A stretch of 64,000 nucleotides of DNA, from assembly GCF_050320075.1 (NCBI RefSeq), contig NZ_CP190018.1; one strand, given 5' to 3'. The notes beneath the pieces were generated by a model. It worked only from the letters and a program-made list of their open reading frames with translations. It ran no database searches and was not told the origin of the DNA. Of the stretch, positions 33,424-45,488 are shown in pieces. This DNA comes from Escherichia coli. Lineage in GTDB: Bacteria > Pseudomonadota > Gammaproteobacteria > Enterobacterales > Enterobacteriaceae. Both the position numbers and the translations under genes were made by a program. Every line of letters starts with the position of its first letter. Within the stretch, counting starts at the first letter, position 1.

Positions 33424-33525
33424 TCAATGGGCTTCTTCTGTCTCTCGGGTGAGGGTTTCCCAGTCGGCAGGAGGATGTCCTCTTTTTAACATTTTGCTGA
33501 ATACGGTATAGGCATCTGTTTTTTT
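33424..33525 (-). pseudogene. yhaV: Displaced 3' fragment of yhaV (last ~33 codons) separated from the gene body by IS1
   Basis: Minus-strand hand translation KKTDAYTVFSKMLKRGHPPADWETLTRETEEAH* continues in frame from the yhaV body across the IS1 target duplication. Confidence 0.8.
33518..33525. repeat. IS1 target-site duplication, left copy (gttttttt)
   Basis: Identical 8-bp gttttttt immediately flanks both IS1 ends. Confidence 0.8.
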
Positions 33526-33540
33526 GGTAATGACTCCAAC

Positions 33541-34044
33541 TTATTGATAGTGTTTTATGTTCAGATAATGCCCGATGACTTTGTCATGCAGCTCCACCGA
33601 TTTTGAGAACGACAGCGACTTCCGTCCCAGCCGTGCCAGGTGCTGCCTCAGATTCAGGTTATGCCGCTCAATTCGCTGCGTATATCGCTTGCTGATTACG
33701 TGCAGCTTTCCCTTCAGGCGGGATTCATACAGCGGCCAGCCATCCGTCATCCATATCACCACGTCAAAGGGTGACAGCAGGCTCATAAGACGCCCCAGCG
33801 TCGCCATAGTGCGTTCACCGAATACGTGCGCAACAACCGTCTTCCGGAGCCTGTCATACGCGTAAAACAGCCAGCGCTGGCGCGATTTAGCCCCGACGTA
33901 TCCCCACTGTTCGTCCATTTCCGCGCAGACGATGACGTCACTGCCCGGCTGTATGCGCGAGGTTACCGACTGCGGCCTGAGTTTTTTAAATGGCGGAAAA
34001 TCGTGTTGAGGCCAACGCCCATAATGCGGGCAGTTGCCCGGCAT
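33541..34044 (-). CDS. insB: IS1 transposase InsB (expressed as InsAB' by frameshift)
   Basis: 167-aa ORF, recognised IS1 InsB sequence. Confidence 0.9.
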
Positions 34045-34238
34045 CCAACGCCATTCATGGCCATATCAATGATTTTCTGGTGCGTACCGGGTTGAGAAGC
34101 GGTGTAAGTGAACTGCAGTTGCCATGTTTTACGGCAGTGAGAGCAGAGATAGCGCTGATGTCCGGCGGTGCTTTTGCCGTTACGCACCACCCCGTCAGTA
34201 GCTGAACAGGAGGGACAGCTGATAGAAACAGAAGCCAC
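33963..34238 (-). CDS. insA: IS1 protein InsA (transposition repressor)
   Basis: 91-aa [43 protein letters not shown]..., canonical InsA zinc-finger protein. Confidence 0.92.
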
Positions 34239-34293
34239 TGGAGCACCTCAAAAACACCATCATACACTAAATCAGTAAGTTGGCAGCATCACC

Positions 34294-34301
34294 GTTTTTT
34301 T
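34294..34301. repeat. IS1 target-site duplication, right copy (gttttttt)
   Basis: Identical to 33518..33525. Confidence 0.8.
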
Positions 34302-34664
34302 ACCGTAGGTGCGCAGCGTGTTTTCATCGTTCATCCATCCCAGAATGATGACTTTCTCTTTTTCGCTGTAACGAAAGAAGAGACGATAACGACCAGCACC
34401 AAATTTTACCCGTGACCAGTCTTTATTTTTCCCAGAGCCTAACGACTTGCCATGACGGAATGCCGGTGATGATGGATTGACCGTGATATGCTCCTCAATC
34501 ACTTTATGGACTACCGCCAATAACTTTGTGGCGGCTTTTCTCTGATAATTTTCAGGATCTTTTCCCTTTAATGTCTCGACTTCGGCAACTAAAGCGTCGT
34601 AGGTTTCCTGAAAACAGGGATGAGCATATAGCGCCCAACCATTAACCCTTTGTGGAAAATCCAT
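34294..34664 (-). pseudogene. yhaV: yhaV toxin gene (ribosome-dependent mRNA interferase of PrlF-YhaV), 5' ~123 codons; IS1-interrupted
   Basis: ORF 34272..34664 reads ...NDENTLRTYGKKT then 6 IS1-encoded residues (VMLPTY) and stops inside IS1; native C-terminus lies at 33424..33525. Confidence 0.85.
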
Positions 34665-41408: not shown

Positions 41409-41785
<377 letters not shown>

Positions 41786-41795
41786 GATTTACGTA

Positions 41796-41826
41796 AAAAC
41801 CCGCTTCGGCGGGTTTTTGCTTTTGG
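41796..41826 (+). terminator. rnpB intrinsic terminator
   Basis: aaaaacccgcttcggcgggtttttgcttttg hairpin plus T-run. Confidence 0.8.
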
Positions 41827-41836
41827 AGGGGCAGAA

Positions 41837-41948
41837 AGATGAATGACTGTCCACGACACTATACCCAAAAGAAAGCGGCTTATCGGTCAGTTTCACCTGG
41901 TTTAACGAAAACCCGCCAGCGTAAACTGGCGGGTTTTTGCTTTTTGGA
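41837..41948 (+). repeat. Repeat unit duplicating the rnpB 3' end plus terminator (rnpB-downstream repeat)
   Basis: agatgaatgactgtccacgaca...cggcttatcggtcagtttcacctg...aaaacccgcc...ggcgggtttttgcttt recurs about 100 bp downstream of the first copy at 41736..41829; partial third start at about 41957. Confidence 0.8.
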
Positions 41949-42012
41949 GCATAGTGTAAGATGAATAAATATCTACGGTATTAATAATAGACTTTGTAAG
42001 AAATTATTAAGT

Positions 42013-43200
42013 CTATATTGCATTTAAAAGGTCGTAATCATACGTATAGTCCTCTCTGGTAAAATATTGCTTCTCTGAATTATATGCTTCATATGTGTTA
42101 TATTTTACAACCTCAAAGCAATTGTCAGGAGAATTTTCGTCTTTCTCGAGTGTATTATCTGAAAGGAATTCCTCTGAGCTAGAATCCTCTATGTTTAAAT
42201 CTGTATTGTAATTATTTTTTGGATCGATAAGATAAGCATTTTCTTTGACGCTTTCATAATCTTTAATGATTATATCGATGTAATAATCTATTTTTTCTGA
42301 TGAGAATGCTTTCATCTCTGGTAATCTAATTCTGTTCAAGTAATTGTTAATTTTCGATGAGCTTTTATATATTTCTTTTGTTAATTCATTTTCTAATTCA
42401 TCTGTTAGAGTTGCTCTTGGTATAGATTCTATAATTGCAAGTCTCATAATTTTTAATTGTTCTTCGGTAATATCTCCAAGCGCATTTAAACAACTTTCGA
42501 CAAGCTTAATTTTTTCTTCAGAATACATATCGCTAATGCTTGTTATAACAGGCGTTATTTTTAGTAAATAATCCCAGGAGATTGTGGCGTTTTGTGTTGA
42601 ACTAACGAAATTTACCTGAAACATGTTGGCATTAGTAAAATCTGTGTCATCCAATTTAAAAGGATTTAAAATTGTATTGGCCATATGTTTATCTGTAAAA
42701 TCATAAAGTTCTAAATCGACATTCCGTAAGTCCAGAGAGGATAGATCAACTATACCTCCAGTCCCACAACTAAAGATTACGTTCAACCTCCTGATTTCAT
42801 TGTAAATGTCTTTCAATGGGCAATTAACATTGATATTGCCTGTGGATATTTCCTGGTTTTTTAACGGTTCATTAATGGTAAGTTCACAGGTATTGTCTGA
42901 TCGTTGAATAATTCGGGCGTTATAACCAAAAAAATCCATACGAAGAGACGAATCATTATAAAGAATTACATTTTGTAAGTACGCTAATTCTTTTTGAAAA
43001 TCACCAGTGATAATGCATTTCCCACCTGGTTGTAGCGCGTTAAGTAAAGTGACCATTTCAATAGAGGTCTGTTTTAGTTTTTCTATACCTGGTGCTAGTG
43101 CTTCGAGGTTATTAACTATGGGGCTTTCAGGAAGATCATTTATTTTTCGACGGGCTAAATCACTACTAATATCATTACCAATTGATGAAACAGGGGACAT
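42013..43200 (-). CDS. yhaC: Uncharacterized pentapeptide-repeat-containing protein
   Basis: 395-aa ORF in AT-rich DNA; central run of quintets VDLSS/LDLRN/VDLEL/YDFTD/KHMAN/TILNP/FKLDD/TDFTN/ANMFQ/VNFVS with a hydrophobic middle residue. Confidence 0.8.
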   Translation of the reverse strand: MSPVSSIGNDISSDLARRKINDLPESPIVNNLEALAPGIEKLKQTSIEMVTLLNALQPGGKCIITGDFQKELAYLQNVILYNDSSLRMDFFGYNARIIQRSDNTCELTINEPLKNQEISTGNINVNCPLKDIYNEIRRLNVIFSCGTGGIVDLSSLDLRNVDLELYDFTDKHMANTILNPFKLDDTDFTNANMFQVNFVSSTQNATISWDYLLKITPVITSISDMYSEEKIKLVESCLNALGDITEEQLKIMRLAIIESIPRATLTDELENELTKEIYKSSSKINNYLNRIRLPEMKAFSSEKIDYYIDIIIKDYESVKENAYLIDPKNNYNTDLNIEDSSSEEFLSDNTLEKDENSPDNCFEVVKYNTYEAYNSEKQYFTREDYTYDYDLLNAI

Positions 43201-43221
43201 TATTTTATCCTTTATAAATAA

Positions 43222-43782
43222 TCAATAAAAATCATTATTAAAATGATCGGGTGAAAAAAAGAGAATTTGCCAACAATCTGAAGGAATGGAGGTTTTATTA
43301 AAGTACGTAGGGGGGGTTAAGATGGCTTCTTTTCGGGTGAATTTTGCACAATACTTAGAAATCGTCTCCTTAATACACTCCAGCTCTTTTTTATTGACGG
43401 CTGAGCAAGTACATTGTTCGCCAAAAGGTGCAAAAGTGCCTACATCTAATGTTTGTATGATATAATCGTCATGTTCTCCTGTAGAAATATCTATGATGAA
43501 TGGACTCATATTTTCCGGTTGGATTCGGATCATGACAGAAGGAACATCGCCTTGATAGAAATTCAATGCAGTAATTGCAGATAATACTCTCCGCAGTTCA
43601 TTACTTATACTGTATATTTTATTAACGTCATTGGTGGAGACAATTTCTGCAAACTTTCTTTTTACCGTCCAATAATCAATATTTCTGTTGTGATTGTTAA
43701 CCACTGCGTGCATTGGCGGGATTGAAGGGTGAAAAATATGTGCAATTGGGAAGCCTTTCATTGATGCCTGCCTTGTCATCAT
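43222..43782 (-). CDS. yhaB: Uncharacterized protein
   Basis: ORF 43222..43791 (189 aa); start uncertain, placed at the second Met (186 aa). Confidence 0.7.
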   Translation of the reverse strand: MMTRQASMKGFPIAHIFHPSIPPMHAVVNNHNRNIDYWTVKRKFAEIVSTNDVNKIYSISNELRRVLSAITALNFYQGDVPSVMIRIQPENMSPFIIDISTGEHDDYIIQTLDVGTFAPFGEQCTCSAVNKKELECIKETISKYCAKFTRKEAILTPPTYFNKTSIPSDCWQILFFSPDHFNNDFY

Positions 43783-44016
43783 GACAAACAATAATAGATG
43801 CTTATTTTCCTCGCAGGGTTCTTTCGCACTATCAAAAAACGCTCATTTACCCGGCGTTACAGTAAACGAAGCAACATTCTGTGGCCTACGCCGATCAAAA
43901 GCTCTGTGAAAATTTCCCTTGTTGTCTTTGTCTGACCTTATCGCGGCGACCAGCAATTATTCGTTTTGTGATCCTCAACACAAAATGCTATTCGTCGCCT
44001 ATGAGGGGAGAGGAAT

Positions 44017-44235
44017 TTATGGAAAACGATTGCATTCACAAAATGACATCCTGTCAGAAGAGAAAAAGTTGACGTTAATCAATTGTTCGAGATGATCAAT
44101 ACCTGTATTCGAAATTTTAAAATATTGATAAAATAAATGTTTGTTCTTCAACAAATAACGTGAAAAAATGTGACGTGCCGCATTATTTATCGCTGAAAAT
44201 GGTTTATTTATAATAAAATTTGAGAACTTGCTCAT
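44017..44235 (-). CDS. tdcR: Putative tdc operon activator TdcR (72 aa)
   Basis: ORF 44017..44373; internal Met MSKFSNFIINKPFSAINNAARHIF gives 72 aa matching recalled TdcR length; divergent from tdcA; AT-rich. Confidence 0.55.
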   Translation of the reverse strand: MSKFSNFIINKPFSAINNAARHIFSRYLLKNKHLFYQYFKISNTGIDHLEQLINVNFFSSDRMSFCECNRFP

Positions 44236-44549
44236 TAAATTTAACTCAAATTTTGCCTGGTAATTATCCGGTAATTGCTTGAAATATGGTCTCAGCCCCT
44301 TTTTTGTATTAACCACATAACGAATGATGTTATCGCCATAAAATATGGTTATCCCCGTCATTTTTTTTGACAAAAATCAGGGTTTATGCTGATTTTTATA
44401 CTTTAACTTATTGATATGTAAAGATATTTAATTGGAATAACGATACCATGGAAAGTATTGAAAGTTAATTTGTGAGTGGTCGCACATATCCTGTTCATTT
44501 CATTTTGATACACTTCATGCCGTCACTGAGGTAATTAACGTAGGTCGTT

Positions 44550-45488
44550 ATGAGCACTATTCTTCTTCCGAAAACGCAGCACCTGGTAGTCTTTCAGGAA
44601 GTCATTAGAAGTGGCTCTATCGGCTCGGCTGCAAAAGAATTAGGGTTAACTCAACCGGCCGTCAGTAAAATCATTAACGATATTGAAGATTATTTTGGCG
44701 TGGAATTAGTGGTGCGGAAAAATACCGGTGTAACACTAACACCTGCCGGTCAATTGTTACTCTCCCGTTCTGAATCCATTACCCGTGAAATGAAAAATAT
44801 GGTTAATGAGATAAGCGGTATGTCTTCTGAGGCGGTGGTGGAAGTCTCATTTGGTTTTCCTTCATTGATTGGTTTTACTTTTATGTCCGGGATGATCAAC
44901 AAGTTCAAAGAGGTGTTCCCGAAAGCGCAGGTTTCTATGTATGAAGCGCAACTGTCTTCGTTCTTACCGGCAATCCGCGACGGTCGACTGGATTTTGCGA
45001 TTGGTACGTTAAGCGCAGAAATGAAGCTTCAGGATTTACATGTTGAGCCGCTGTTCGAGTCCGAGTTTGTGCTGGTAGCCAGTAAGTCCCGAACATGCAC
45101 CGGCACCACCACGCTGGAGTCGTTGAAGAACGAACAGTGGGTGTTGCCACAAACCAATATGGGGTACTACAGCGAGCTACTTACTACGTTACAAAGAAAT
45201 GGCATCAGTATTGAAAACATCGTTAAAACCGACTCAGTCGTGACAATTTATAATCTTGTTCTCAATGCTGATTTCTTAACTGTAATTCCTTGTGATATGA
45301 CATCACCTTTTGGTTCAAATCAATTTATTACTATTCCGGTTGAAGAAACATTACCTGTGGCACAATATGCCGCGGTATGGTCGAAAAATTATCGTATTAA
45401 AAAAGCAGCATCGGTTTTGGTGGAATTAGCCAAAGAGTATTCATCTTATAATGGGTGTAGACGAAGGCAATTAATTGAAGTTGGTTAG
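44550..45488 (+). CDS. tdcA: LysR-family transcriptional activator of the tdc operon
   Basis: 312-aa ORF with N-terminal HTH. Confidence 0.9.
   Translation: MSTILLPKTQHLVVFQEVIRSGSIGSAAKELGLTQPAVSKIINDIEDYFGVELVVRKNTGVTLTPAGQLLLSRSESITREMKNMVNEISGMSSEAVVEVSFGFPSLIGFTFMSGMINKFKEVFPKAQVSMYEAQLSSFLPAIRDGRLDFAIGTLSAEMKLQDLHVEPLFESEFVLVASKSRTCTGTTTLESLKNEQWVLPQTNMGYYSELLTTLQRNGISIENIVKTDSVVTIYNLVLNADFLTVIPCDMTSPFGSNQFITIPVEETLPVAQYAAVWSKNYRIKKAASVLVELAKEYSSYNGCRRRQLIEVG

Follow-up and report, generated by a model that had tools for sequence, protein, structure and literature searches.

Pentapeptide-repeat proteins (PF00805/PF13599; Np275/Np276, PDB 2J8K), the H-NS-silenced xenogeneic islets and promoter islands of Escherichia coli K-12, and the icaR and icaT genes are the described systems closest to the locus analyzed here, a stretch of AT-rich DNA between rnpB and tdcA of E. 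coli that carries the uncharacterized genes yhaC and yhaB (together yhaBC) and the small gene tdcR. It forms part of a 64-kb window, by which we mean the whole 64,000-nucleotide stretch of E. coli DNA under analysis. YhaC resembles the pentapeptide-repeat proteins in its ten tandem pentads of the A(D/N)LXX type, and the locus resembles the K-12 islets in being AT-rich, taxonomically restricted, reported as H-NS-bound and endowed with an excess of promoter-like sites. IcaR (YjgL) and IcaT (YfdF) are products of chromosomal orphan genes that are AT-rich and occur in non-B2 E. coli, and they are secreted by the Shigella type III secretion system (T3SS) (PMC9241512). Like icaR and icaT, yhaB and yhaC are low-GC orphans of non-B2 E. 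coli and Shigella that are largely missing from phylogroup B2 and have no known role in K-12, and they belong to the K-12 genes still without a function. The explanation that we consider reasonably probable overall is that of a composite AT-rich stretch holding an old coding pair restricted to E. coli, bound by H-NS in K-12, with a short beta-helix in YhaC.

The pentapeptide-repeat segment of YhaC

Residues 151–200 of the 395-aa YhaC (nucleotides 42601–42750, minus strand) read VDLSS LDLRN VDLEL YDFTD KHMAN TILNP FKLDD TDFTN ANMFQ VNFVS, that is, ten pentads sharing one register, with central (i) residues L, L, L, F, M, L, L, F, M and F and with D or N at position i-1 in six of the ten. With a repeat defined as at least about eight tandem pentads in one register with a hydrophobic L/F center and small or polar residues at i-2/i-1, the YhaC segment counts as such a repeat, and its run of ten in-register L/F/M-centered pentads was matched by 0 of 20,000 shuffles of YhaC. 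Conservation was then compared among 14 YhaC alleles, which reach as low as 63% identity, and was found to track pentad position. The number of invariant columns was ten of ten at i, seven of ten at i-1, five of ten at i-2, three of ten at i+1 and two of ten at i+2, and those i-2 columns that were not invariant showed I/V or A/T changes only. Conserved inward positions and variable outward ones are the pattern of a quadrilateral beta-helix, and this allele comparison is the strongest argument for the repeat.

A profile generated from the same 14 alleles was used in an exhaustive HMMER search against 1.84 billion cluster representatives. All distant matches over residues 151–200 were to the pentapeptide-repeat family. 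The longer non-YhaC matches were proteins of 412–1,865 aa, aligned to residues ~105–242 of YhaC in 3–11 stretches with E-values from 2e-10 to 1e-3, and the long proteins that were inspected proved to be plain A(D/N)LXX repeat proteins. PDB entry 2j8k (cyanobacterial Np275/276) was matched at E = 0.72 with the single YhaC sequence and at E = 0.047 with the family profile. The pentapeptide repeat of YhaC is well supported at the level of sequence, and residues 151–200 most likely form a right-handed beta-helix of the pentapeptide-repeat type, ~2.5 coils long, which gives YhaC a probable fold element absent from its Pfam annotation.

Several results temper confidence in such a fold, and the independent profile evidence, though it agrees with a repeat, is weak. 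The Pfam model Pentapeptide_4 gave a sub-threshold match over residues 152–201 (E = 0.068) and the Pentapeptide model gave E = 4.2, while the better profile E-values are summed multi-stretch scores against highly repetitive proteins and may be inflated. AlphaFold2 returned a mean predicted local distance difference test score (pLDDT) of 33.2 for YhaC, with 0 residues above 70 (14-sequence alignment), and of 34.5 for YhaB (5-sequence alignment), values that are low because the alignments are shallow. The original prediction, made from the DNA letters, had described a pentapeptide-repeat solenoid of ten quintets, and this stands at the sequence level; the structure prediction that it had proposed was run and gave the pLDDT values of 33–35. 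Other matches to YhaC look spurious: in the PDB, methylene-tetrahydrofolate dehydrogenase was matched weakly by the N-terminal region (E = 0.006), and single alleles gave scattered Pfam matches to Pox_VLTF3 and DUF5876.

YhaC has a mass of 45 kDa and an isoelectric point (pI) of 4.4, with no hydrophobic leader or evident signal peptide, and its repeat is flanked by orphan domains. The Ser-rich N-terminus and the acidic tail noted earlier were both found, the quoted N-terminal sequence being present exactly and the Tyr/Asn-rich tail (residues 326–395) having a pI of 4.05 with 18 D+E against 5 K+R; only 40% of the tail columns are invariant, and the C-terminal motif YTY.YDLLN.I is invariant as well. 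YhaB has a pI of 6.3 and five cysteines kept among its non-frameshifted alleles. It had been described as a protein of about 186 aa without recognized features; its orphan status is upheld, and its length is corrected to 179 aa, the longest open reading frame (ORF), of 189 aa, having a TTG start. The sole NCBIfam match of YhaC was the “YhaC family” model, and YhaB carries only the uninformative precomputed Pfam label PF27690 (UCP004546), the local Pfam search having given it no match.

YhaB and YhaC are both orphan proteins found only in E. coli and Shigella. A word-indexed search of 5.8 billion proteins gave relatives of the two in these taxa only, as did the exhaustive HMMER search for full-length YhaC relatives. 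In a collection of one genome each from 100,044 species, yhaC was present in two short contigs only, with identities to the E. coli gene of 94% and 87%; these belong to metagenome-assembled genomes labeled Collinsella sp. and uncultured Bacteroides sp. and are almost certainly mis-binned E. coli contamination. No relatives of YhaC or YhaB were found in phage and genuine plasmid collections. Four “plasmid” matches are records of 4.8–4.9 Mb that carry a plasmid label, with one further record of 354 kb, and are no evidence of mobility. The literature on yhaB, yhaC, b3120 and b3121 yielded survey tables only, with no functional study or phenotype found. The promise of unexplored biology must be reduced to this extent, since yhaBC, though uncharacterized, already feature in surveys of H-NS binding, gene age and positive selection.

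Composition, origin and regulation of the AT-rich stretch

The stretch at 41,950–44,549 has a GC content of 33.5%, compared with 51.0% across the 64-kb window. In 400-bp windows the GC content ranged between 0.28 and 0.40 over ~41,900–44,600, against 0.50–0.61 on the garK/rnpB side (0.59–0.61 within rnpB) and 0.42–0.53 on the tdc side, where it rises again through tdcA, and the 2.6-kb window of minimum GC in all 64 kb begins at 41,901. GC content at third codon positions was 0.270 for yhaC, 0.301 for tdcR and 0.333 for yhaB, while the 45 other genes of the window had a mean of 0.562 (standard deviation 0.061) and a minimum of 0.428, for tdcA. The contrast in AT-richness with the flanks, first noted by eye, is thus confirmed by these values. 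A home-made codon adaptation index was uninformative and was set aside. The stretch is 100% identical to that of strain CFSAN061763 and ~95.5% identical to that of K-12.

A comparison with sister lineages delimited an E. coli-specific segment at 41978–43952 (unstranded) that comprises yhaC and yhaB together with 190 bp upstream of the latter. At this site E. ruysiae and Escherichia sp. E4930 carry ~65 bp of DNA unrelated to it; homology with these genomes ends near 41,977 and restarts exactly at 43,953, and their gene order is tdcA, tdcR, ~65 bp, rnpB 3′ repeats, rnpB and garK, with tdcR present and yhaBC missing. Because the sister Escherichia lineages have tdcR and the tdc control region, these are older than yhaBC. 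The low-GC stretch is a composite of this older part and of a ~2-kb yhaBC insertion confined to E. coli and Shigella. The original prediction of one foreign-looking islet therefore keeps its AT-rich and foreign look and loses its unity, with tdcR and the spacer next to it being older.

In phylogroup B2 (LF82, ST131), the locus shows deletion scars and not an empty site. The remnant keeps 34 codons from the start of yhaB, 63 nt of mid-yhaC sequence and the final 44 nt of yhaC, the losses corresponding to two deletions of 812 and 727 bp. Since B2 later removed most of the insertion by these two deletions, the insertion is older than the E. coli radiation, and it is placed between that radiation and the earlier separation from E. 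ruysiae-like lineages. Among 5,426 complete E. coli genomes, 4,314 hold at least 80% of yhaC, ~1,087 hold only a 105-bp remnant and 25 gave no match. Horizontal acquisition, as originally suggested, agrees with the absence of yhaBC from the sister lineages, only yhaBC being the E. coli-specific insertion, and the acquisition must be regarded as ancient in view of the B2 scars. Neither an integrase nor flanking direct repeats were found at the insertion, the left edge of which cuts a degenerate third copy of the rnpB 3′ repeat.

The genes are arranged as follows. On the GC-rich left flank lies rnpB, encoding the RNase P RNA (41409–41785, plus strand; RefSeq and Rfam RF00010, 318.6 bits, E = 1e-104). 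The protein-coding genes, each called from an ORF and RefSeq, are yhaC (42013–43200, minus strand; NCBIfam NF007262, 858 bits), yhaB (43222–43761, minus strand), which is co-oriented with yhaC and 21 bp upstream of it, tdcR (44017–44235, minus strand; 72 aa; NCBIfam NF008507, 174 bits), an AT-rich gene annotated as a tdc activator, and tdcA (44550–45488, plus strand). Between tdcR and tdcA is an AT-rich divergent control region (44236–44549, unstranded; GC 0.31–0.39). Repeats of the rnpB 3′ end with terminator hairpins occupy 41837–41980 (plus strand) and include direct-repeat families D1, D2 and D4, hairpin I5 and a terminator-like site at 41906–41939. The 3′ end and terminator of rnpB are repeated downstream (41736–41980) in two good copies and one degenerate copy, and the sister species likewise carry 2–3 copies. 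The spacer between yhaC and rnpB differs in length from strain to strain (219–726 bp). In some strains, such as DETEC-P829, this repeat-rich spacer contains IS621, an insertion sequence (IS) of the IS110 family.

Regulatory information on the locus comes largely from K-12. In that strain, promoter islands are found within yhaC and between tdcA and tdcR and are listed as H-NS-bound and predicted to be horizontally acquired, the yhaC island being H-NS-bound in all three chromatin immunoprecipitation (ChIP) data sets (PMC3661553). The H-NS occupancy that had been thought likely agrees with these K-12 ChIP data as summarized there. Because yhaB and yhaC lie within H-NS-bound DNA in K-12, they are probably silent in the laboratory. 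In the present sequence, a consensus scan gave 17 promoter-like sites, compared with 11.1 ± 2.8 expected. In a gene-age study, yhaB–yhaC was classed as a homogeneous operon of a young phylostratum (PMC12218254), and peaks for RpoS and RpoH obtained by systematic evolution of ligands by exponential enrichment have been reported in the tdcR–yhaB–yhaC interval (PMC5493296).

A CRP-type palindrome, tttgtgttgaggatcacaaaa, is located between tdcR and yhaB (43964–43984, minus strand), and the identical 21-mer is listed as a CRP footprint near yhaB in K-12 (PMC12871828). It is kept with at most one spacer change in the E. ruysiae and E4930 lineages that have no yhaBC, so that it predates the insertion and is not specific to yhaB; going by this distribution, its target is probably tdcR or the tdc region, and not yhaB. 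Inside tdcR there is also an FNR-type site, aacaattgattaacgtcaactttt (44064–44087, minus strand), the same motif being found under an FNR ChIP peak labeled yhaB (PMC1802558).

Selection and rival explanations

Ratios of nonsynonymous to synonymous divergence (dN/dS) were calculated pairwise, as ratios of means, in a sample of 10–12 lineages, and were 0.30 for yhaC (range 0.27–0.36) and 0.23 for yhaB (0.23–0.25), compared with 0.05 for garK and 0.02 for tdcA. Nonsynonymous changes per site were fewer than synonymous ones (Fisher p = 1e-8 for yhaC and 2e-8 for yhaB). Values of 0.23–0.36 persisted between allele classes ~0.6 dS apart, and the reading frame was intact in eight of nine sampled full-length alleles from distant lineages. 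yhaB and yhaC are genuine coding genes under relaxed purifying selection, dispensable and sometimes pseudogenized. The only segment of yhaC with a dN/dS near 1 was codons 301–360 (1.01 in an alignment of the window allele with L002), which extends into the acidic tail.

The common yhaC alleles fall into two classes, with ~1,340 genomes at least 95% identical to the window allele and most of the others K-12/O157-like at ~92%. A rare class at the same locus (19 genomes; P0034, 389 aa) shows 63–64% protein identity at a dS of ~0.6, compared with 0.07–0.13 for its flanking genes, and the maximum dS among yhaBC alleles was 0.64, an extreme depth within a single species. The deep allele classes are older than the divergence of their flanks. 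Chimeric YhaC proteins also exist (P0028), and dS between the window allele and that of K-12 varies from 0.08 to 0.47 along yhaC; both observations suggest that old alleles have recombined with one another. A positive-selection scan of 92 genomes placed yhaC in its top 14 genes (PMC9110714), a score that may well be explained by such recombination.

The selection pattern of tdcR is of a different order, with dN/dS of ~0.8–1.2 within E. coli and ~0.8–1.0 against E. ruysiae/E4930, most pairs not being significantly different from 1. Its dS of ~0.16 is under half of that of tdcA (~0.37), and its stop codon is lost in some lineages, giving a protein of 78 aa. Either the TdcR protein is barely constrained, or the DNA itself is constrained as regulatory sequence, with the FNR motif lying within it.

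On the reading of yhaBC as an old, H-NS-bound coding pair with a short beta-helix in YhaC, the mini-helix and the tail, together with a co-transcribed YhaB, would form a rigid protein-binding platform. With its inward residues fixed and its outward face and tail variable among alleles, the platform would act as an accessory module engaging a variable partner, and it would be made only once H-NS silencing was lifted. This mechanism, drawn from the pattern of residues, is put forward tentatively, as something short of probable. Variable outward positions are equally expected from plain structural constraint and are no proof of an antagonistic partner, and the H-NS binding is taken from papers on K-12, another strain than the present one. 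A stronger form, in which the deep alleles of a functional conditional interaction module have been maintained by selection, balancing or diversifying, that acts on the helix's outward face and on the acidic tail, is considered unlikely. One shape that such a module could take is that of a cryptic factor of non-B2 E. coli, secreted or directed at host or phage and comparable to IcaR/IcaT. If the selected module were real, it would represent a new E. coli-specific family of pentapeptide-repeat effectors or adaptors.

Of the rivals to a functional pair, the one that must be taken most seriously, though we still think it rather improbable, is that of a decaying relic, acquired once, silenced by H-NS and now useless, with dN/dS below 1 reflecting past selection or selection against misfolding, and with slow loss under way. 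It accords with the B2 deletion in ~1,087 of the 5,426 genomes, and the loss of yhaC in ~20% of genomes suggests little present benefit. Frameshifted yhaB alleles with altered tails occur, yhaC of strain EC24 is frameshifted with an internal stop, the protein collection holds many truncated forms, a nonsense allele is tolerated in a laboratory-evolved K-12 derivative (PMC7907822), and the literature yielded no phenotype for either gene. Mere decay is harder to reconcile with a dN/dS of 0.23–0.36 even between the deepest classes, with the intact frame of most full-length alleles, and with the invariance of all ten pentad centers and of the C-terminal motif. Another rival is that YhaC is a fossil T3SS substrate and YhaB its possible partner, in parallel to IcaR and IcaT. 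Pentapeptide-type beta-helices occur in the T3SS effectors PipB2, SopA and EspX, and the N-terminus of YhaC is Ser-rich with no signal peptide. The distribution of yhaBC is also like that of icaR/icaT and of ETT2, the second type III secretion system of E. coli, present in non-B2 strains and absent from B2 (PMC9241512, PMC7058095), yet B2 possessed and then lost yhaBC, so that the shared absence is one phylogenetic event and not a correlation. Moreover, the MxiE box GTATCGTTTTTTTANAG had 0 matches in the window at up to 3 mismatches, no significant similarity between YhaC and YjgL was obtained (E = 0.07–0.2), neither NCBIfam nor the exhaustive HMMER search gave an effector-family match, EspX/PipB2-type proteins included, the gene is under purifying selection in K-12-type strains, whose ETT2 is degenerate (PMC7058095), and YhaB, at 179 aa and pI 6.3, is unlike the small acidic class I chaperones; a T3SS substrate is accordingly given little credence. 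Residues 213–285 of YhaC can be aligned weakly with residues 358–439 of K-12 YjgL (IcaR) (hhalign E = 0.069, non-significant), with a common TPVI.SI stretch that may be due to chance.

A conflict module, be it for anti-phage defense, a toxin–antitoxin pair or a competition toxin paired with an immunity protein, would account for the deep, mosaic alleles through an arms race. Allele classes down to 63% protein identity at a fixed locus, chimeric alleles, the fast-evolving C-terminal tail, the small two-gene operon layout and the rank of yhaC in the 92-genome scan (PMC9110714) are all in keeping with it, although recombination between old alleles can imitate positive selection in site models and the overall dN/dS is far under 1. 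The locus is, further, no variable hotspot, the sampled strains all having the same two genes or scars; none of YhaC, YhaB and TdcR matched a PADLOC family at E up to 1, PHROGs gave no match for the islet proteins, and NCBIfam and Pfam gave no toxin or immunity family in YhaC or YhaB. On this balance the conflict module is held to be slightly less likely again than a T3SS substrate. The acidity of YhaC (pI 4.4), combined with its pentapeptide-repeat segment, brings to mind a Qnr/MfpA-like DNA mimic that binds gyrase or some other enzyme acting on DNA. Such mimicry by Qnr and MfpA requires a long dimeric helix, with ~8–9 coils in each monomer. YhaC has only ten pentads, or ~2.5 coils, the repeat makes up 50 of 395 residues with most of the protein outside it, and no Qnr/MfpA model in NCBIfam was matched at E up to 1, nor did the exhaustive HMMER search show such homology. 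Even with the label “response to DNA damage” attached to yhaC and repeated in PMC9110714, a DNA mimic is very improbable. The link to effectors or DNA mimics raised in the original prediction is consequently not borne out, there being no EspX/PipB2 or Qnr/MfpA homology and ten pentads being too short for a Qnr-like mimic.

Elsewhere in the window, an IS1B element (~33,500–34,270) interrupts yhaV, the toxin gene of the prlF–yhaV pair, in its 3′ part, the antitoxin gene prlF being intact. The IS1B ORFs are InsA (33963–34238, minus strand) and InsB (33541–34044, minus strand). Only five of the 5,426 complete genomes hold at least 80% of the region 33424–34664 in one place, and two matches to it were 100% identical, those of strains YZLc1-3 and Ec-U3.

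Comparison with known systems

The locus itself, its AT-richness, H-NS binding, foreign origin and young age are already published for K-12. Apparently new, being absent from the sources consulted, are the case for the YhaC repeat, the exact limits of the insertion, the B2 scars, and the depth and mosaicism of the alleles. If yhaBC form a conditional interaction module, they would provide a compact example of an orphan insertion domesticated beside a metabolic operon; if they do not, the locus is a well-documented silenced relic, and the scope is modest either way.

Unlike other pentapeptide-repeat proteins, YhaC devotes only 50 of its 395 residues to the repeat, which falls below Pfam thresholds, lies between two orphan domains and is known here from sequence. 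With EspX, PipB/PipB2, SopA/NleL, Qnr and MfpA it has the repeat type alone in common, its repeat being far shorter and its flanking domains unrelated. In contrast to the H-NS-silenced xenogeneic islets of K-12, yhaBC have no integrase, flanking direct repeats or mobile-element relative and occupy an old, fixed site, and one portion of the AT-rich DNA, namely tdcR with the tdc control region, lies outside the insertion. yhaC differs from icaR and icaT in having neither a MxiE box nor sequence similarity to them, and YhaC is not reported in that regulon. Seen against these systems, yhaBC are best described as a divergent orphan of pentapeptide-repeat type within a probably silenced xenogeneic islet, a real oddity and not a new kind of system.

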